The notes beneath the pieces are model-generated. The model did not search any database. It was given only the letters and a program-made list of their open reading frames with translations, and was not told where the DNA came from. Below, in pieces: positions 29,437-57,993 of a stretch of 57,993 bases of DNA. Within the stretch, counting starts at the first letter, position 1; each line of letters opens with the position of its first letter. A program made the position numbers and the translations under genes. The DNA lies in NCBI GenBank assembly GCA_016182095.1, contig JACOXY010000001.1, positions 1 to 57,993 of the forward strand, read 5' to 3'. This stretch comes from Candidatus Liptonbacteria bacterium (lineage in GTDB: Bacteria > Patescibacteriota > Minisyncoccia > UBA6257 > JACOXY01).

Positions 29437-32001
29437 CTACTTCAAAACCTTTCGCAAATACTCTCCGGTAAAACTGCCGGCCTTTTGCGCAACTTCTTCA
29501 GGGGTGCCCATGGCCACAACCCTGCCACCCTTCTCCCCTCCTTCTGGGCCCAGATCAATAACCCAATCGGCGGACTTTATCACATCCAAGTTATGTTCAA
29601 TTACTATCACGGTGTTCCCGCGCTGAACCAGTTTTTGTAAAACTTCAAGCAATTTTTGAATATCTGCGAAATGGAGTCCGGTTGTGGGCTCATCCAACAG
29701 ATAAAGCGTGCGGCGCGTATCAGGTTTCCCCAGTTCCGCGGAAAGTTTGATGCGCTGGGCTTCCCCGCCAGAGAGAGTCGTGGCCGATTGCCCCAATTGC
29801 AGATAGTCCAAACCGACGTCCTCCAAAATTTTCAGGCGCTCATAAAGCCACGGAATGTCCTTAAAAAAATCTACCGCTTCCTCAATCGTCATGTTCAGAA
29901 TGTCATGGATATTTTTGCCGTGATACTCTACCGCGAGCGTTTCCCTGTCAAACCTCTTGCCCCCGCACACATCGCACTCCACATAAACCGTCGGCAAAAA
30001 GTGCATCTCAATAGCAATCGTGCCATGACCCTCGCAATTCTCACACCTTCCGCCAGGCACGTTAAAGCTGAATCTTCCCGGCTTATATCCTCTTACGCGG
30101 GCATCTTCGGTGGATGAGAACAGCTCACGAATATAGCCCCAAGCGCCGACGTAAGTGGCGGGATTAGAGCGTGGAGTGCGCCCAATCGCCGACTGGTCAA
30201 TATTTATAATCCGATTAATATACTCAAGACCCAAAATCGCGTTTACTCCATTTACTTTGAACCCGGACCGATTAAGCTTGTTGGCAATATATTTATAGAG
30301 CGCGTCGTAAACCAGAGAGCTTTTGCCGGAACCGGAAACTCCCGTGATCGCCACAAAACGTCTCAATGGAACTTCCAAATTTATATTTTTAAGGTTGTTG
30401 GTTGAAATCCCCCTAAGCTTTAGATAATCCTGATTTTTAGAAATTTTTCTTCTTTCATCGGGGACTTCAATAAATTGCTTACCGCGTAAATAGTCCAAAG
30501 TTAGAGATTTATATTTCTTGTCATCCTTTATTATCTGCGGCATCGGCCCTTCCGCGATAATCTTCCCGCCATGGACCCCGGCGCCAGGACCTATATCAAC
30601 CAAATAATCCGAAGCGCGAATCGTTTCCTCGTCGTGCTCAACCACGATAATCGTATTCCCAATATCGCGGAGATTTTTCAGAGTTTCCAGAAGTTTTGCG
30701 TTATCGCGCTGATGAAGCCCGATAGTCGGCTCATCCAAAACATAAAGAGCTCCAACGAGCCGCGAACCGATTTGCGAGGCGAGCCGTATTCTTTGCGCCT
30801 CACCGCCAGATAAAGTCCCCGCCATTCTATTTAATGTGAGGTACTCCAACCCCACATCAATCATAAACTGAAGACGGTTTTTAATTTCTTTAAGCGGCAA
30901 TTCGGCAACCTCGGCAAACCTAACATCTTGCGATGTCGTTAGGTTAGTGAAAAATTTTTTAGCCTCGGCAATTGAAAATGCCGTTACCGCTGAAATATTT
31001 TTATTATCAATTAAAACATTAAGCGCCTCCGGTTTTAATCTTTTCCCGTCGCAAACCGGACAAATTTTTTCCGAAAATAAACTCTCCGTGCCTAAGCCAT
31101 TGCACGTTGGGCACGCTCCGTAAGGACTGTTGAAGGAGAATAGCCGCGGCTCAATTTCCACAAAAGCAAACCCGTCACGCGGACAAGTAAACTTGGCCGA
31201 GAAAGAATGCTCGCGATCACCATCGACAATCACCGTCAAAACATCATTGCCGTACTTTAAGGCATGCTCAATCGCCTCTGCTAGTCGTAAACGATTATCT
31301 TTGTCGCGAAAGTCCAAAGTTTGCGGGATTCTGTCCACTAAAAGTTCAATGGTATGCGCCTTATAGCGCGAAAGTTCAATGCGGTGCCTTAATGATTTAA
31401 ATTCTCCGCTAATTCTGACTTCAGAAAATCCGGCGTTTAAGAAATCGTAAAGCATCTGGTAGTATTCCCCTTTCCGGCCGCGGACGACGGGCGCCAAAAT
31501 TAAAATATTTTTGTCGGTTTTTGCTTTTTTAAAAATCCTAATAACCGCGTCAACTATTTCCTCCTTGGTCATTTTTTTGATTTCACGGCCGCATTGCGGG
31601 CAGTGCGGGATACCTAATCGCGCAAAAAGTACTCGCAGATAGTCATAAATCTCGGTAATGGTCGCCACCGTTGAGCGCGGATTATGTGAGTGGCTCTTTT
31701 GGTCTATGGAAATTGCTGGCGATAACCCCTCAATTTCATCCACATCCGGTTTATCAAGTTTGCCTAAAAATTGCCTGGCATAAGCCGAGAGTGATTCTAT
31801 GTAGCGTCTTTGGCCTTCGGCAAAAATAGTATCAAACGCTAAGCTGGATTTTCCCGAACCCGAAAGTCCCGTAAACACAATCATCTTACCCCGGGGAATT
31901 TCGAGATTGATGTTTTTAAGGTTATGCTCACGGGCACCCTTAATTTTTATGGTTCGGCCCTGCTCACCACCCTGAGCCTGCCGAAGGATTTTATCGTTCA
32001 T
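29437..32001 (-). CDS. uvrA: Excinuclease ABC subunit A
   Basis: Two ABC cassettes: [27 protein letters not shown] twice. Confidence 0.98.
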
Positions 32002-33042: not shown

Positions 33043-35088
33043 TTAGAAATTTAATTGTTTTTTAGATTTGATATTCTTGGAATCCTTAAGCAATACCCTT
33101 ATCTCGTCGCGTAGGAGAGCGGCAACTTCGAAGTCCAAATCCTTTGCTGCAATTCTCATTTCTTTTTCCTTATTTTTTATTAAGTCATCCAGTTCCCTGC
33201 CCTTCAGGGGCACATCTTCCAAACGCAAAATTTCGCGGATATCTTTTTTCTTGAACTCCAGACCACCCATAATGTCATTAATATTCTTGATAATTGTTTT
33301 GGGCGTTATGCCGTGTTTTTTATTGTATTCAATCTGCATTTTTCTACGGCGATTGGTAACATCCGCCGCCCTTTTAATGGAGCCCGTAATTACATCGGCA
33401 TACAAAAGCACTTTGCCGTTCACATTTCGGGCCGCGCGGCCGATGGTCTGGATTAACGAAGTCTCACTTCGTAAGAATCCTTCTTTGTCGGCGTCTAATA
33501 TGGCGACGAGAGATATCTCGGGCAAGTCCAAGCCTTCGCGGAGCAGGTTCACGCCAACCAGCACGTCATATTTCCCCCGCCTGAAGTCGGACAAGATCGT
33601 AATCCGGTCAAGCGTTTTAACGTCGCTGTGCAAATAATTTACTTTAATGGTTCGACCGTGCTCACCACTGGTCTTTTTTCCTTCTAGATACGCGCTTAGG
33701 TCTTCAGCCATTTTTTTAGTTAAGGTTGTTACCATAACACGCTCTTTTTTAGCCATTGTTTTATCAATCCACTCTTTGAGGTCATCAATTTGGTTCTTGC
33801 CTCCTTTAAGAGCCGAGACAGGGTGCATAATAATCTCCGGATCAACGAGCCCCGTCGGACGGATGATTTGTTCTGCGACATTCTTACTCGCCTTTAATTC
33901 GTATTGTGACGGAGTTGCTGAAGTGTAAATCACCTGTCCCACCCGCTTTTTAAACTCCTCAAACCGGAGTGGACGGTTATCTGCGGCGGAGGGCAACCTG
34001 AACCCATATTCAATCAGCGTTTTTTTACGCGACGCATCCCCCTCATACATACCGCCAATCTGTGGAACGGTAATATGCGATTCATCTATCACGGTCAAAA
34101 AGTCATCCGGGAAGTAATCCAAAAGCGTTGCAGGCGGCTCTCCCGCAGTCCGCCCCGATAAATGCCGGGAATAGTTTTCAATGCCGTGGCAGTAACCCAC
34201 CTCCTCAATCATCGCAAGATCAAACTTGGTGCGCTGTTCCAGGCGCTCCGCCTCAAGATATTTTCCGTTTTTTTCAAAGTATTTAAGTCGCTCATTTAAT
34301 TCCTTTCTTATAGCTTCTACTGCCGCTAATTTTTCATCTCCCATGGTGATAAAATGCCGAGCCGGGGAAATAACTACGTCCACTGCGCGGCTTGACTGCC
34401 GCGACACAGGATCGGTTTCATAAATTTCTTTTATTTCGCCGCCCGTAACCTGCAAATTATAAATAATTTCGCGGTCAGGTGGCATGATCTCCCAACTATC
34501 CCCACGCAAACGAAAATAGCCGCGCTTCAAATCCGCATTGGTGCGCGTAAATTGCAACTTCACCAATTTGCGGACAAAATCTTTACGTTCCAATTTAGAA
34601 CCCACATGAAAGTCCATGATATTTTCCGCATATGCTTCTGGCGCACCCAGGCCGTAGATACAAGAGACTGAAGCCACCACGACTACATCTTTCCTTGTTA
34701 AAAGAGCAGTCGTTGCCGCATGACGCAATTTATCTATCTCGTCGTTTATCATCGCCTCCTTGCCGATGTAAGTATCGGAAACGGGAATGTACGCCTCCGG
34801 CTGATAATAATCGTAATAAGAAACAAAATAATTCACCGAATTTTCCGGGAAAAGTTCACGGAATTCGTTGCAAAGTTGGGCCGCCAGAGTCTTGTTATGC
34901 GCGATAACAAGCGTCGGTTTCTGCACTTGCATAATTACATTCGCGACCGTAAATGTCTTTCCGGAACCTGTAACGCCAAGAAGTGTCTGGTGCTCAAACC
35001 CTTTCCTTAAGCCCGAAACAAGCGATTTTATAGCTTGGGGCTGGTCACCACTTGGTTTATATTTTGACTTTAGCCGGAATTTATTCAT
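33043..35088 (-). CDS. uvrB: Excinuclease ABC subunit B (start taken at MNKFRL)
   Basis: GVTGSGKT, AHNKTLAAQL, DESH, NLLREGLD, IQTIGRAAR. Confidence 0.98.
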   Translation of the reverse strand: MNKFRLKSKYKPSGDQPQAIKSLVSGLRKGFEHQTLLGVTGSGKTFTVANVIMQVQKPTLVIAHNKTLAAQLCNEFRELFPENSVNYFVSYYDYYQPEAYIPVSDTYIGKEAMINDEIDKLRHAATTALLTRKDVVVVASVSCIYGLGAPEAYAENIMDFHVGSKLERKDFVRKLVKLQFTRTNADLKRGYFRLRGDSWEIMPPDREIIYNLQVTGGEIKEIYETDPVSRQSSRAVDVVISPARHFITMGDEKLAAVEAIRKELNERLKYFEKNGKYLEAERLEQRTKFDLAMIEEVGYCHGIENYSRHLSGRTAGEPPATLLDYFPDDFLTVIDESHITVPQIGGMYEGDASRKKTLIEYGFRLPSAADNRPLRFEEFKKRVGQVIYTSATPSQYELKASKNVAEQIIRPTGLVDPEIIMHPVSALKGGKNQIDDLKEWIDKTMAKKERVMVTTLTKKMAEDLSAYLEGKKTSGEHGRTIKVNYLHSDVKTLDRITILSDFRRGKYDVLVGVNLLREGLDLPEISLVAILDADKEGFLRSETSLIQTIGRAARNVNGKVLLYADVITGSIKRAADVTNRRRKMQIEYNKKHGITPKTIIKNINDIMGGLEFKKKDIREILRLEDVPLKGRELDDLIKNKEKEMRIAAKDLDFEVAALLRDEIRVLLKDSKNIKSKKQLNF

Positions 35089-56052: not shown

Positions 56053-57048
56053 TTAAAAGTCATCTTGAATTTTTTGCCTAACAGCTTCCCTTAACTTATG
56101 CGCATTGCCATGAATTAAGAGACCGGCATAAGAAGCAATAGTCGCGTGTTTGGGTTTGCCAAAAAGACGCTGTTCCATTCTTTGTTTTGTTTTTGTCCGA
56201 AGCACGCGGTGTTCGGTAAAATGCACCCATCCCAAGAAATCAACTCCGGAAGAGACAGTTTTAAAGACAATTTTCTTTGGGTGAAGCGTGAGCCTAAGTC
56301 GTTCTTCCAAAAAATCAGCGATTTTGGGCAAATACTCCAAAAGTATATCTGGGTCTCGCGAGAGCATTACAAAATCATCGGCGTATCTGATATATCGTCT
56401 AATTTCCAAATCACGCTTAATAAACTGGTCAAGTTCGTTTAAATACAAATTTATAAAAAGTTGGCTTGTTAAGTTCCCCAATGGAATCCCCCTGCCTTTC
56501 ACGCCACCTGAAAAACTATTTATTACTTCCTGAATAACTGCCAAAAGCCGCTTATCCCCAATGTGCTTCTCTAATATTTTTATGAGGATCGCGTGATTCA
56601 CCGAAGTAAAACATTTTGCGATATCACATGTTAGCGCTAAAACAGTTTTCGTTCCATTAGCTCCTTCTTTCCCCACAAATGCCGCTAATCTTCTTAATGC
56701 TTTATGAGTGCCCTTCTTTTTTCTACAAGAATAAGAATCATAAATAAAATATCGTTCAAAATATGGATAGAGCGCCTCATAAATCGCGTGGTGCGCCACG
56801 CGATCGCGCACAGACGCTTTATGAATATCGCGCGGCTTTGGGTCAGAAATTTTAAAATGAGCGTACCCACCATGTTTATACTTGCCGCCTAAAATATCGC
56901 GTTCCAGACCGCGTAAATTGTCCACTAGCCGCGCGGCAAATTCCGCCACGTCGACTTTTCTACGTTTACCCTTACTAAACGTTATCCACGCGTGAAACAA
57001 ATTTTGAAAAGAAAAAGTGTCTTCAAAGTTTGGAATTCTATAATTCAT
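56053..57048 (-). CDS. DGR-type reverse transcriptase
   Basis: KPRDIH..SVRDRV.HHA, SYSCRKKKGTH, DIAKCF, GIPLGNLTSQ (LGxxxSQ typical of DGR RTs), YADD; 331 aa with no maturase/endonuclease tail. Confidence 0.95.
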   Translation of the reverse strand: MNYRIPNFEDTFSFQNLFHAWITFSKGKRRKVDVAEFAARLVDNLRGLERDILGGKYKHGGYAHFKISDPKPRDIHKASVRDRVAHHAIYEALYPYFERYFIYDSYSCRKKKGTHKALRRLAAFVGKEGANGTKTVLALTCDIAKCFTSVNHAILIKILEKHIGDKRLLAVIQEVINSFSGGVKGRGIPLGNLTSQLFINLYLNELDQFIKRDLEIRRYIRYADDFVMLSRDPDILLEYLPKIADFLEERLRLTLHPKKIVFKTVSSGVDFLGWVHFTEHRVLRTKTKQRMEQRLFGKPKHATIASYAGLLIHGNAHKLREAVRQKIQDDF

Positions 57049-57084
57049 ATTATATATGATACAATTTTTACAATAAGAATAACT

Positions 57085-57461
57085 ATGAACGCCCCCCCCC
57101 CCAACAGAAGCTTTCCGGCATCGCGCAAAAATTGCTTGCCACCTATAAGGCCTGGCACGAAATCACTCGCCACATTCCCAAAATGCGGCGCTATTCACTG
57201 GGCGTAAAAATTGATTCGCTTTTTAGTGATGTTATTGAGCTTATATCCATTGCACAATTTTCCGTTAAAGAAAAACGAATTCCCGTTATTGAACGTGCAA
57301 TAGCTAAAAATGATGTTTTGAAATTTATGCTCTATGTTCTGTGGGAACTTCAGGGTATTGAAGAGAAACATTTTTTGGCGATTGCTCCGCAACTTGAGGA
57401 GGTAGGCCGTATGCTCTACGGCTGGAAACAACGTATGGAAAAAGAAAACCGCCCTGCGTAA
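57085..57461 (+). CDS. avd: Avd-like accessory variability determinant (four-helix bundle); natural ATG at 57085 is out of frame because of a C11 tract, in-frame TTG at 57132
   Basis: RYSLGVKID, LKFML..L.EL..I, EVGRMLYGW; adjacent to RT and TR. Confidence 0.85.
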
Positions 57462-57485
57462 AAGCGCGGAGCGGAAACAAGATTA

Positions 57486-57630
57486 GTATCGAACAGAACA
57501 ACACGGCAATTGCCATTCCAACCGTTCGTGAGCCAATTCGCATTCCGATGCCATCTCGCATCCGTGGCATTCCACCCCACACACGGCACATTCCAGTTGC
57601 CATTAGCGCCGCGAAGAATTACACGAAAAA
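57486..57630 (-). ncRNA. DGR template repeat (TR); 5' boundary approximate
   Basis: Minus strand reads RVILRGANGNWNVPCVGWNATDARWHRNANWLTNGWNGNCRVVLFD with 9 AAY codons; 57489-57509 is identical to 57972-57992. Confidence 0.9.
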
Positions 57631-57860
57631 CCTTCCGTGCCACCGCCCGCAAGAAGCATCGTGTGCTAATCGCCGAGCTGTATAGTATTTGGTATATAAA
57701 ATACTCCGGTTTCTCGCGCAGACTTTTCTAGTTTTTTAGATTTTGAAGATGACTCTCACTATCACGAGCCACATTAGCAAGTGATATTCTGGATTCACCC
57801 ATCTCGACGCTGTGGCATAAAGATCTTAATCCGTATGCTGATATTCACAAGCGTAATTTT

Positions 57861-57869
57861 ATTATATCA
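57861..57869 (-). promoter_or_regulatory. Extended -10 promoter likely driving the TR RNA
   Basis: TGATATAAT on the minus strand about 230 nt upstream of TR. Confidence 0.5.
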
Positions 57870-57964
57870 TTTCTAAATTTAACGCAAGGGCAAAAATCAA
57901 AAAATCAATCTGGCATTGGCAATAATCCAAAACCCAAAAAACTACCTGTAGTGAGCTTGCCGAA

Positions 57965-57993
57965 CTATTTTTCGAACAGAACAACACGGCAAC
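57965..57993 (-). CDS. 3' end of the DGR target gene (variable repeat/IMH), truncated by the window edge
   Basis: Encodes xGT-C-R-V-V-L-F-E-K-TAG; 21-nt identity to TR, then TR A versus VR G at 57510/57993. Confidence 0.85.

Follow-up and report, generated by a model that had tools for sequence, protein, structure and literature searches.

The right-hand end of the window, by which we mean the whole analysed stretch of 57,993 nucleotides, very likely carries a chromosomal diversity-generating retroelement (DGR) of the CPR clade that is built as a B3 cassette, uses a folded template RNA and serves at least three target genes. Its parts, a reverse transcriptase (RT), an Avd protein, a template repeat (TR) and the end of a target gene, are identified and placed in Table 1. 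The host is a groundwater Patescibacteria genome, and the element is one more CPR DGR, of a kind already known; such elements are known in thousands, and this one adds to their number. What gives it a wider meaning is that the template would be part of a discrete, covarying RNA made up of promoter, leader, template, tail and terminator. A reading of the same DNA from its letters alone (the sequence-only reading) had proposed a DGR at this place, and the proposal is borne out by the DGR-type relatives of the RT, the Avd homologue, the adenine-specific differences of the variable repeats (VRs) and the discovery of further VRs.

Table 1 Features of the retroelement at the right-hand end of the window
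Feature	Positions	Strand	Basis or remarks
DGR RT, 331 aa	56053..57048	-	GIPLGNLTSQ and RYADDFVM; Pfam RVT_1 1.3e-22
AT-rich divergent control region between RT and avd (putative)	57049..57131	.	read from sequence
Likely true avd 5' end	57085..57131	+	ATG 57085, C11 tract 57092-57102
avd body, 109 aa, pI 9.4	57132..57461	+	first in-frame start TTG; opposite RT and TR
Terminator-like hairpin CCGCUCCGCGCUUUUACGCAGGGCGG (57474-57449) and U-run (57448-57439)	57439..57474	-	terminator scan; dG -13.7
3' tail from TR to hairpin, UACUAAUCUUGUUU, 14 nt	57475..57488	-	partner of a leader strand in relatives
TR, 128 nt, 25 A	57489..57616	-	three VR contigs align exactly to these bounds
Structured leader of the template transcript, about 235-239 nt, 7-8 helices	57617..57855	-	profile and covariation
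Extended -10 promoter-like motif TGATATAAT	57861..57869	-	253 nt before TR
Multi-copy segment: target gene end and 70 nt downstream	57895..57976	-	depth about 2-3x that of the RT contig
End of target copy 1, last 9 codons and stop, 29 nt	57965..57993	-	...CRVVLFEK*, stop 57965-57967

The LGNLTSQ and YADD motifs on which the sequence-only reading had based its RT call lie in an open reading frame whose length fits the DGR lineage (about 330-400 aa, without a maturase or endonuclease domain), with both the SQ of motif 4 and the YxDD in place, and the match to RVT_1 agrees with an RT. Related RTs were found at 160 loci, all from CPR or DPANN, with identities of up to 77%; this maximum is reached with a contig (L082), and no locus with a complete cassette exceeds 56%. 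The closest relatives are DGR RTs from Patescibacteria MAGs, and an A-biased TR/VR pair is present in 91 of the 110 relatives with enough upstream DNA. The only recorded contig with the exact RT ends at 57924. One could alternatively regard the enzyme as the RT of a group II intron or a retron, with the 21-nt repeat described below as a product of chance or the remnant of a duplication, and its top NCBIfam match is indeed a group II intron RT/maturase model (1.6e-39). DGR RTs are related to group II intron RTs, which explains this best match; the score is, however, 136 bits against a cut-off of 300, the retron RT model gives 37 bits against 235, and DRT models likewise score under their curated cut-offs. 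Together with an Rfam search that gave no intron or retron RNA, an RT of just 331 aa, and the A-specific TR/VR pattern shared by this locus and those 91 relatives, this refutes a group II intron or retron identity, which would have spoken against a DGR and to which we attach virtually no probability.

The order of the parts, target-VR, TR, inverted avd and RT, corresponds to architecture B3, TR-(avd)-RT, which makes up 90% of the CPR set of Wu et al. (2018, NAR 46:11, PMC5758913). The special architecture that had been suspected is thus not borne out, the layout being the published one that is typical of CPR, and for the same reason we rejected the inverted avd as a novel layout. Among our relatives, avd lies antisense between TR and RT in 67 of the 71 in which it could be found, and TR precedes RT by 350-560 nt in most. 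The neighbouring 822-aa HExxH/vWA gene was considered as a further part of the cassette and rejected, with a homologue nearby in only 1 of 160 relatives.

The exact identity of 57489-57509 and 57972-57992, noticed at the outset together with the gene end next to the second copy, was confirmed as the longest repeat in the region, and by our own arithmetic chance alone would produce about 5e-7 such 21-nt pairs in 2 kb. Read on the - strand, the block has the sequence TTGCCGTGTTGTTCTGTTCGA, with a single A at its end, in line with the 20 A-free nucleotides counted earlier. The two copies diverge directly after the block, where TR has T at 57510 (A on the - strand) and VR has C at 57993 (G on the - strand), which is the A-versus-G mismatch that had been pointed out. 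This A-poor stretch of 21 nt, with which both TR and VR end, is an IMH*-like segment; the target stop follows 5 nt later, and the VR of target copy 1, starting at 57972, extends to about 58099, past the edge of the window. The Trp/Asn-rich TR frame on the - strand, LRGANGNWNVPCVGWNATDARWHRNANWLTNGWNGNCRVVLF, contains exactly the nine AAY codons (7 AAT, 2 AAC) previously counted, and 24 of the 25 TR adenines occupy the first or second position of a codon. The 15^9, or 3.8e10, variants calculated from those nine codons are arithmetically correct and constitute a lower bound only, as all adenine-bearing TR codons together give 4.9e13 possible peptides.

The VRs were obtained from Logan contigs of the public assemblies of four groundwater samples (runs X1-X4, one of which is SRR12113430). 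Three VR contigs of 143-165 nt, the full number found, differ from TR at 17, 17 and 20 positions, and fix its length at 128 nt rather than the approximately 140 bp anticipated. The longest of them, of 165 nt, joins 57947-57971 directly to a 128-nt TR copy with 20 differences, and thereby carries the repeat across the edge of the window, where a break would have spoken against a DGR. Leaving out 28 differences near the alignment ends (9-10 per VR contig), we find 23 of the 26 typed differences on TR adenines (binomial p 2e-13 versus an adenine content of 21%), as the DGR proposal had predicted, and the remaining three at positions 57550 and 57583. The divergence of the three VRs from TR is, in other words, A-specific. 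An exact-pattern scan of the genome and metagenome contigs with the last 52 nt of the window gave no match. Folding of 57880-57993 yielded no convincing GC-rich hairpin behind the VR, and the z of -0.65 obtained for this fold rules out a VR-flanking cruciform.

Most likely, the three VRs belong to at least three paralogous target copies with identical flanks. Such contigs could also arise from co-existing strains that carry different alleles of a single target locus: the three VRs share 12-18 nt upstream and the same visible downstream flank, and a population bubble would look alike. Alleles of one locus should, however, sum to the depth of RT and TR, whereas each VR on its own equals or exceeds the RT contig in X1, X2 and X3 (11.1, 11.6 and 13.7 versus 9.75 for the single-copy RT contig in X1; 130, 123 and 163 versus 113 in X3), which argues against alleles. 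The common flank is moreover present at 2-3x depth, and two VRs per TR are known in relatives (L057, L063, L071, L022 and L092), and we consider an allelic origin improbable. A second upstream context joins at 57895 in the Logan contigs, and sequence that is single-copy and specific to the window starts at 57894, upstream of the promoter motif.

Immediately upstream of the VR, the flank FFFGSV is in frame and matches homologous targets, and joined to the TR peptide it is 66% identical to the tail of the closest relative, a protein of 240 aa (P0122). The family to which this protein belongs is soluble, about 230 aa long and unannotated, its Pfam search remaining without match, and the closest full-length relatives contain no hydrophobic segment, signal peptide or membrane segment. 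Protein-word searches, with a chimeric 230-aa query bearing the window's tail or with the 50-aa tail alone, gave no candidate. The C-terminal domain of the P0122-type family is homologous to that of a second type of target (L086-type; hhalign 95.5%). A fusion to an AAA+ ATPase is seen in one relative, P0142. The model of P0122 (pLDDT 56, 8 sequences) was left out; that of P0001, a homologous target (hhalign 95.5% to the window-type family), reaches a pLDDT of 91.9 and predicts a strand, two helices and four strands, an order that would be compatible with a C-type-lectin-like domain, the fold that the sequence-only reading had assumed for the target. A Foldseek comparison of this model with PDB and BFVD returned nothing significant (best E about 1), the sole long structural alignments being to C-type lectins (TM 0.26-0.34); there was no sequence match in PDB, and a profile comparison with canonical FGE-type DGR targets gave no similarity (hhalign 0.2%). 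The variable domain at the C-terminus presumably serves as a binding surface. Judged by their sequences, the targets look like intracellular proteins, being hydrophilic and free of signal peptides and known domains, and they occur in at least three copies. It is usually assumed that CPR DGRs diversify surface adhesins, and targets of this appearance fit that assumption poorly.

An Avd-like open reading frame had been recognised as well, and its presence stands, with the correction that avd runs opposite to RT and TR. The homologue at 57132-57461 is matched by NCBIfam DivGenRetAVD (1.6e-11) and Pfam bAvd (1.9e-8), both under the curated cut-offs, and when started at TTG covers positions 12-103 of the 104 in the profile. 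In the assembly, the upstream ATG at 57085 does not share the frame of the Avd body, owing to the C11 tract, which is present in the contigs of all four runs, with no indels; with a tract of C12 or C9, translation from this ATG would enter the Avd body as MNAPPP(P)QQKLSGIAQK..., and the Avd proteins of relatives have 10-25 extra N-terminal residues before helix 1, often proline-rich. The AT-rich interval 57049-57131 is probably a divergent control region, with an extended -10-like motif (TGATACAAT, + strand, 57057-57065) ahead of this ATG, a position at which a consensus promoter scan gave no flag.

These observations bear on the current activity of the element. We infer that it may still be active, and regard it as rather unlikely, if by no means far-fetched, that it is at present switched off or decaying, with the avd frame broken by C11, no full-length Avd made and the VRs frozen. 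Such a state would agree with the out-of-frame ATG, with the recurrence of C11 in contigs from all four samples, and with the loss, on starting at TTG 57132, of some 10 helix 1 residues that are retained in relatives. It would agree also with the VRs themselves: all three contigs recur in X1-X3 and two of them in X4, and contigs contain no minor variants, even in the sample with 113x depth, although contigs hide rare ones. The recurrence of the same VRs in 3-4 samples, with no minor variants at 113x, means that there is no sign of ongoing diversification. Against an element that has decayed, RT and TR are intact, as are the leader helices and the terminator; non-ATG avd starts are common in relatives, and the TTG-initiated protein still covers nearly the whole profile, as given above. 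Rare variants in tract length would, like rare VRs, be invisible in contigs. The VRs furthermore differ from TR at 17-20 positions, as compared with 24 mutable adenines, and the element has therefore been active in the past of the lineage.

The most informative part of the cassette is the 345-nt spacer between VR and TR, which holds a promoter motif and a leader RNA of about 235 nt with strong covariation. Conservation of this leader is evident at several levels. Even where the RTs of two loci agree in just about 50% of residues, their leaders are 70-80% identical in nucleotides over some 200 nt; an nhmmer profile from which the window was left out matches it at 57847-57622 (E 1.3e-12), and a covariance model, likewise built without the window and covering the 3' domain of the leader, matches at 57619-57736 with 68.3 bits (E 3e-13). 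In the 161 loci this model has 62 matches, all on the RT strand and upstream of RT, which end 0-3 nt before TR wherever TR was mapped, and it has none elsewhere in about 1.95 Mb. In a MAFFT alignment of 23 sequences, RNAalifold predicts 45 pairs, with compensatory changes at 40, and 92.9% of the pairing cells can pair, versus 68.8% after shuffling and 39-49% after sliding; among the 52 best covariance matches the figure is 97.9%, in an alignment that was fitted to the model. The leader in the window forms 38 of the 45 consensus pairs, and its minimum free energy fold reproduces the helices (z = -2.96), including one of 12-13 bp whose 3' strand adjoins TR. An A that is almost invariant (51 of 52 sequences) lies, in the window, just 5' of GUCUGCGCG, near 57724. 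The spacer was rejected as protein-coding, with no conservation in tblastx and indels that are not multiples of three. Rfam gave no family at gathering threshold or at E <= 10 for the leader in the window and eight relatives, and no such leader was found in Rfam 15 or in the DGR literature open to search.

Conserved sequence between VR and TR need not belong to the template RNA, and might rather represent a separate small RNA, or belong to the target gene as its 3' UTR or terminator. The terminator-like hairpins behind VR in 33 of 74 relatives would suit this, and none of the public runs that hold the stretch is an RNA run. We nevertheless find it quite improbable, as the leader always ends 0-3 nt before TR, on the strand of TR, its last helix strand adjoins TR, and no terminator lies between the two. 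The promoter-like motif, moreover, keeps a fixed distance before the leader: TGnTAnnnT is found in the spacers of 46 of 77 relatives, clustered 227-285 nt before TR, and the single-copy sequence of the window begins upstream of it, at 57894.

A leader that is part of the template RNA is also favoured by what lies behind TR, since a leader strand covaries with the tail. Across relatives this strand pairs with the tail: duplexes within the same locus have a mean of -11.3 kcal/mol, versus -7.1 kcal/mol between loci, and the within-locus mean was reached in 0 of 5000 permutations. In the window itself the leader-tail duplex is weak (AAACUAGA/UCUUGUUU, 7 of 8 pairs, -4.9 kcal/mol), and another leader segment, 57807-57784, pairs better with the end of TR and the tail (-14.6 kcal/mol). 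To the DNA beyond the VR, a leader-borne primer shows in the window no more than a match of 5 nt (AACTA), which we disregard. The terminator-like hairpin that follows overlaps the avd stop and last codons in antisense. A hairpin (dG <= -8) followed by a T-run is present after TR in 56 of 80 relatives, as compared with 15% of random 100-nt windows, and the median position of the stem end in relatives is +38.5 nt (IQR 34-46).

The element would most likely work as follows. A non-coding RNA of about 415 nt would be transcribed on the - strand from the extended -10 promoter at 57869-57861, comprising the folded leader (about 235 nt), the 128-nt TR, the 14-nt tail and the terminator hairpin that overlaps the convergent avd end, with the positions at which transcription begins and ends presumably set by this promoter and this hairpin. 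The divergent promoter region between RT and avd would drive both genes. The RT-Avd complex, which the leader would recruit and for which it would set the start and stop of copying, would copy TR into cDNA with misincorporation opposite the 24 mutable adenines; the cDNA would then replace the last 42 or so codons of the target genes, with the 3' boundary marked by the A-poor 21 nt that TR and VR have in common. One could further speculate that CPR DGRs use a permuted template RNA, in which the elements for recruitment and for starting and stopping reside in the leader of about 235 nt and not, as in the Bordetella phage, in a spacer behind TR. One continuous leader strand would here supply the partner of the tail, as an analogue of the primer duplex, and the same strand, after the near-invariant A, would provide one strand of the 12-bp helix, as an analogue of the cDNA-stop duplex. 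We put this forward tentatively, as a proposal with slightly less than an even chance of being right. If true, the permuted leader RNA defines the minimal RNA for reconstituting the class of cellular DGRs with the most members. Published studies of how DGR RNA works rest on one phage element, and the RNA of about 415 nt together with two small CPR proteins would offer a direct test of how general the phage mechanism is.

The phage element is the DGR of Bordetella phage BPP-1, whose RNA runs from the avd 3' end through TR into a 140-nt spacer, Sp (Handa et al., PMC6182149; bioRxiv 10.1101/2023.10.23.563531); this structured spacer 3' of TR holds the priming adenosine and the Avd-binding stem-loops (Handa et al.). 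Both elements have an RT and an Avd and transfer TR to VR in an adenine-specific manner, and in both the template lies inside a longer structured RNA with a stem-loop behind TR. A duplex between upstream and downstream sequence that closes the template into a loop, comparable to the avd:Sp 'cPRT Stop' duplex of BPP-1, is seen at the level of the clade (in the energies within and between loci given above) and is weak in the window. In contrast to BPP-1, avd is inverted in the window and takes the place of Sp, and only about 50 nt follow TR before termination; instead of a 3' spacer of about 140 nt there are the 14-nt tail, one hairpin and the U-run, and then antisense avd. The large structured part, of about 235 nt, is 5' of TR in the window, the strand that pairs with the tail is more than 100 nt upstream of TR, beyond the 40-nt scan of Handa et al., and the 12-bp helix directly before TR is formed wholly within the leader. 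The RT-10 RNA motif (Weinberg et al. 2017, PMC5737381) is likewise a conserved structured RNA of a DGR template transcript, but its place, in DGRs of the BPP-1 type, is between TR and RT, across TR from the leader described here. With the targets of C-type-lectin fold (Mtd, TvpA and the archaeal AvpA; PMC5006420), the targets described here share a VR that forms the last 45 or so residues and Asn codons on a Trp/Gly/Arg-rich scaffold; they differ in that neither PDB nor BFVD gave a significant structural match to the related target that was modelled. Finally, the B3 DGRs of CPR and DPANN (PMC5758913; 'DGR clade 2' of Roux et al. 2021, PMC8144416) agree with the element in gene order and orientations, in host group, in their small unannotated targets and in serving more than one target; nothing essential sets it apart from them, and it is a member of this group.

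As the sequence-only reading had proposed, a diversity-generating retroelement (DGR) stands at the right edge of the window, and coordinates, profile matches and a codon count bear out its reverse transcriptase (RT), its accessory gene (avd), its template repeat (TR) and the end of a variable gene; what that description had left out is that avd runs on the opposite strand. The RT matches RVT_1 (1.3e-22) and carries the motifs LGNLTSQ and YADD, and two Avd models, Pfam bAvd (1.9e-8) and NCBIfam DivGenRetAVD (1.6e-11), hit the open reading frame on the + strand, in each case under the curated cut-off. The TR frame translates as LRGANGNWNVPCVGWNATDARWHRNANWLTNGWNGNCRVVLF, with 9 AAY codons and 24 of its 25 adenines at codon position 1 or 2. 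The longest repeat of the region is the 21-nt identity between 57489-57509 and 57972-57992, next to which the TR has an A and the variable repeat (VR) a G. Grouping with group II intron or retron RTs, which the earlier reading had named as grounds for its refutation, is not what we find: the RT scores 136 bits against a model cut-off of 300 for the former and 37 bits against 235 for the latter, Rfam detects no intron or retron RNA, and the RT therefore falls with neither.

Parts of the DGR cassette at the right edge of the window
Feature	Position	Strand	Remark
Target gene, last nine codons and stop (...CRVVLFEK, then stop)	stop 57965-57967	-	gene continues past window edge
Promoter-like motif TGATATAAT	57869-57861	-	253 nt before TR
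VR-TR spacer	345 nt	-	without conserved ORF
TR	57616-57489, 128 nt	-	template repeat
Tail (14 nt), then strong hairpin and U-run	hairpin and U-run 57474-57439	-	3' of TR
avd	57132-57461	+	between TR side and RT
RT	57048-56053	-	beyond avd

Exact-word scans of two sequence collections gave no match for a continuation past the edge. The stretch occurs in four groundwater metagenome runs of one study (X1-X4), which we analysed as Logan contigs, and three short ones among these, of 143, 149 and 164/165 nt, align to precisely the TR interval, 57489-57616, with 17, 17 and 20 differences. The longest begins with 57947/8-57971 and is therefore the VR of the window-edge gene, so that the repeat runs on past 57993 as expected. 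The letters upstream are identical in all three VR contigs (TTCTTCTTCGGTTCTGTG on the - strand) and continue the frame as FFFGSV. Counting only differences away from the alignment ends, 23 of 26 lie at TR adenines against an expectation of 21% (binomial p 2e-13), and the divergence is thus adenine-specific, in line with the sequence-only prediction. The remaining three, at 57583 (first base of a Cys codon, in two VRs) and 57550, may be ordinary paralogue drift or rare non-A errors; at 57583 the first base of the codon TGT is replaced by G in one VR (Cys to Gly) and by C in a second (Cys to Arg), and at 57550 one VR has AAT for CAT. The untyped differences number 9-10 per VR contig, about the adenine count (10) of the untyped ends.

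One could read the three VRs as alleles of one locus. Alleles would, however, sum to single-copy depth, whereas each VR contig alone reaches or exceeds that depth: 11.1, 11.6 and 13.7 against 9.75 in X1, 7.0, 7.2 and 7.3 against 6.6 in X2, and 130, 123 and 163 against 113 in X3 (single-copy depth being that of the contig that carries RT and TR, 9.75 in X1 and 112.6 in X3). The segment 57895-57976, comprising the target gene end and 70 nt downstream, is likewise multi-copy, at two to three times the depth of the RT contig. Our reading is therefore that the target exists in three or more paralogous copies whose ends are identical. At 57895 a second upstream context joins, in which TTATAATCATAACAAGGCCTTTGCGCAATG (+ strand) replaces the window's 57865-57894 in other copies, and a multi-copy segment with an alternative flank explains why both the window contig and the Logan contig break here. 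X1, X2 and X3 all contain the same three VRs, two of which recur in X4, while the 113x sample holds no further variants among its assembled contigs, which suppress rare variants; thus the contigs of the four runs, with that same limit, give no sign of current diversification. There are no other VRs inside the window. The sequence after the target stop (57948-57967, - strand TAGTTCGGCAAGCTCACTAC) resembles, over a short match, GGTTCGGCCCTGCTCACCAC and GGTTCGACCGTGCTCACCAC inside two other window genes (31944-31970 and 33643-33668).

The start of avd is peculiar, in that an 11-C tract (57092-57102) shifts a natural-looking ATG at 57085 by one base relative to the frame of the Avd body. A tract of C12 or C9 would give an Avd of 125-126 aa beginning MNAPPP(P)QQKLSGIAQK..., which resembles the longer, proline-rich N-termini of relatives; these extend 10-25 residues upstream of the position of the window's first in-frame start, TTG 57132. 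The tract is C11 in contigs of all four samples and could mean that avd is phase-variable, that the ATG is dead, or that translation begins at TTG 57132. In X3, Logan contigs end in Nextera adapter (CTGTCTCTTATACACATCT) at 56982 and 57094, flanking the RT-avd intergenic region, where a depth of about 100 drops to 23; these breaks are artefacts of assembly or library around the AT-rich region and the C-tract and have no biological meaning.

From genome and metagenome collections we recovered 160 loci with a related RT, nearly all in Patescibacteria MAGs with a few in DPANN; the best RT match is 77% identical, on a short contig, and complete cassettes reach at most 56%. Each locus was compared with itself for repeats in which at least 80% of the mismatches fall on a single base of one copy. 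TR/VR pairs of this kind occur in 102 of 161 loci (the set includes L001, a copy of the window's RT contig); among the 110 loci with enough DNA upstream of the RT, 91 have one there. In 67 of the 71 loci where a search with the window's Avd protein located avd, the gene is antisense and placed between TR and RT. This conserved layout is the architecture B3, 'TR-(avd)-RT', seen by Wu et al. in 90% of their CPR set (PMC5758913), and Roux et al. assign such elements to a cellular, CPR-restricted clade 2 (PMC8144416). Since B3 is dominant in CPR, the layout is ordinary for the lineage, and the element is a real DGR and an ordinary CPR member of the B3 class, with its target array outside the window. 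Three loci (L038, L060 and L073) hold two complete TR/VR pairs within 10 kb, apparently second DGR cassettes. In another relative the called protein P0132 passes from TR-encoded peptide directly into the RT N-terminus (…FQNLFSAWQEFKKRK…), and therefore the TR there seems to lie directly before the RT with no avd between. An 822-aa HExxH, coiled-coil, vWA protein is encoded directly downstream of the window's RT (53558-56026, - strand); we rejected it as a conserved DGR neighbour, a homologue lying nearby only in L063 among the 160 relatives.

With the 42 residues encoded by the TR as query, an exhaustive phmmer search finds P0122 (240 aa) together with P0135, P0153, P0134, P0144, P0147 and P0150. 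The C-terminus of P0122, ...FFFGSILRGTNGDWHVPSTRWYAADAKWHRDANWLEGDWYGNYRVVLLEKEKSNPK, is 66% identical to the window tail, and a two-residue insertion is common to both. P0122-type proteins measure 135-280 aa and match no Pfam family above threshold; they contain no 19-residue window with mean hydropathy above 1.1 and are therefore predicted to be soluble, lacking a signal peptide or membrane anchor. A relative of 806 aa, P0142, carries the same C-terminal module after an AAA+ ATPase. The P0122-type C-terminal domain is homologous (hhalign 95.5%, E 1.6e-8) to that of a larger target family of the RT relatives, typified by P0001 from L086 (531 homologues reported) and present in L086, L094, L007, L016 and L012. 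None of the listed P0001 homologues has a functional annotation or a precomputed Pfam domain, and P0001 itself matches nothing in NCBIfam or, by sequence, in the PDB. Its AlphaFold model is confident (pLDDT 91.9) and has, from residue 98, a strand, two long helices, one short helix and four strands, the VR lying on the last strands, an order that fits a C-type-lectin-like domain. Foldseek against the PDB and BFVD returns nothing significant for this model, its only long alignments being with C-type lectins (TM 0.26-0.34), and the family has no profile similarity to the canonical FGE-type targets of more distant loci (0.2%). The domain may be a very divergent lectin fold, and Roux et al. foresaw such fold ambiguity for CPR targets (PMC8144416). 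The targets would be intracellular binding proteins.

The most informative result of our analysis concerns the VR-TR 'spacer', which is a structured RNA. An extended -10 motif, TGnTAnnnT, occurs in the spacers of 46 of 77 relatives, clustered 227-285 nt before the TR. Between this putative promoter and the TR, the DNA is 70-80% identical over about 200 nt between loci whose RTs are only about 50% identical, with no conservation at the protein level. A profile of this leader, built without the window, matches 31 times in 1.97 Mb, always on the RT strand, and where a TR is mapped nearly every match ends within a few nucleotides of the TR start; the window match is at 57847-57622 (E 1.3e-12). RNAalifold on a plain MAFFT alignment of 23 leaders predicts 7 helices with 45 pairs in total, and 40 of the pairs show compensatory double changes. 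Of all cells, 92.9% pair. Shuffling lowers this to 68.8%, with none of 500 shuffles as high as the real alignment, and displacing the partners by 1-3 columns lowers it to 39-49%; the covariation score is 0.76 against 0.29 and 0.12-0.19, respectively.

The window leader forms 38 of these 45 pairs, four of the seven missing ones being a one-column register shift in helix 1 (GCAUA with UAUGC), and its minimum-energy fold recovers the helices (z = -2.96). We also made a covariance model of the leader 3' domain (107 positions, 20 pairs) from sequences other than the window's; it gives the window copy 68.3 bits (E 3e-13) and has 62 matches in the 161 loci, reaching RTs of 42% identity. All lie upstream of the RT on the RT strand, with none elsewhere in these loci, and end at the TR start wherever a TR is mapped; on the 52 best, in an alignment fitted to the model, 97.9% of cells pair. 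Rfam 15 has no family for the leaders of the window or of eight relatives.

Behind the template, 56 of 80 distinct loci have a stable hairpin (dG <= -8) with a T-run after it in the first 100 nt past the TR end (stem end at a median of +38.5 nt, IQR 34-46), against 15% of random 100-nt windows from the same loci. The window hairpin, CCGCUCCGCGCUUUUACGCAGGGCGG and then UUUUCUUUUU, overlaps the avd stop codon, and 57439-57461 has a dual use, the complement of the U-run and hairpin 3' arm encoding the Lys/Asn-rich Avd end (EKENRPA, then stop). Close relatives show the same dual use, with Avd ends …EKKNR… or …KQNSP….

Across the family, leader and tail, the segment between TR and hairpin, also covary. 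The leader segment 5' of a 12-bp helix (consensus AAAAAUGAAGA) is complementary to the tail (consensus UCUUCAUUU), and in distant loci (e.g. L121, L045, L063, L118 and L127) the two sequences are wholly different but still complementary over 12-17 bp. By RNAduplex, the own-locus mean is -11.3 kcal/mol against -7.1 across loci, a value reached in 0 of 5000 permutations. In 51 of 52 sequences an A lies between the 12-bp helix and the strand that pairs with the tail. The window's own duplex is weak (AAACUAGA/UCUUGUUU, 7 of 8 pairs, -4.9 kcal/mol), with C-G where the consensus has U-A, and an alternative leader segment, 57807-57784, pairs better with the window's TR end and tail (-14.6 kcal/mol). 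As an example of this conserved RNA architecture, which we found neither in Rfam nor in the literature searched, the window's template RNA serves well.

As a potential mechanism, the template RNA would start at about 57855 and end at about 57440, while the 83-nt divergent region separating RT and avd would drive the expression of both. The leader may dock RT-Avd, its terminal helix may halt cDNA synthesis at the TR 5' end, and the hairpin could serve as a terminator, an Avd-binding stem, or both.

The literature searched contains no description of the CPR leader. The RT-10 motif of Weinberg et al. lies between TR and RT of BPP-1-type elements (PMC5737381), whereas the CPR leader is on the opposite side of the template. 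The Bordetella phage DGR requires 20 nt upstream of the TR and a 140-nt downstream spacer for cDNA synthesis; priming is from A56, on a spacer strand paired with the TR end; slightly further along, the spacer pairs with the upstream segment in the 'cPRT Stop' duplex, and its stem-loops bind Avd (PMC6182149; bioRxiv 10.1101/2023.10.23.563531). The scan of other DGRs for such duplexes by Handa et al. covered 40 nt before and 100 nt after the TR (same sources), whereas the tail-pairing strand of the CPR clade lies more than 100 nt upstream of the TR, beyond that range, and antisense avd occupies the place of the spacer. The CPR clade thus follows the same logic as the Bordetella phage element, with the template looped out between helices and a hairpin behind it, but differs in connectivity.
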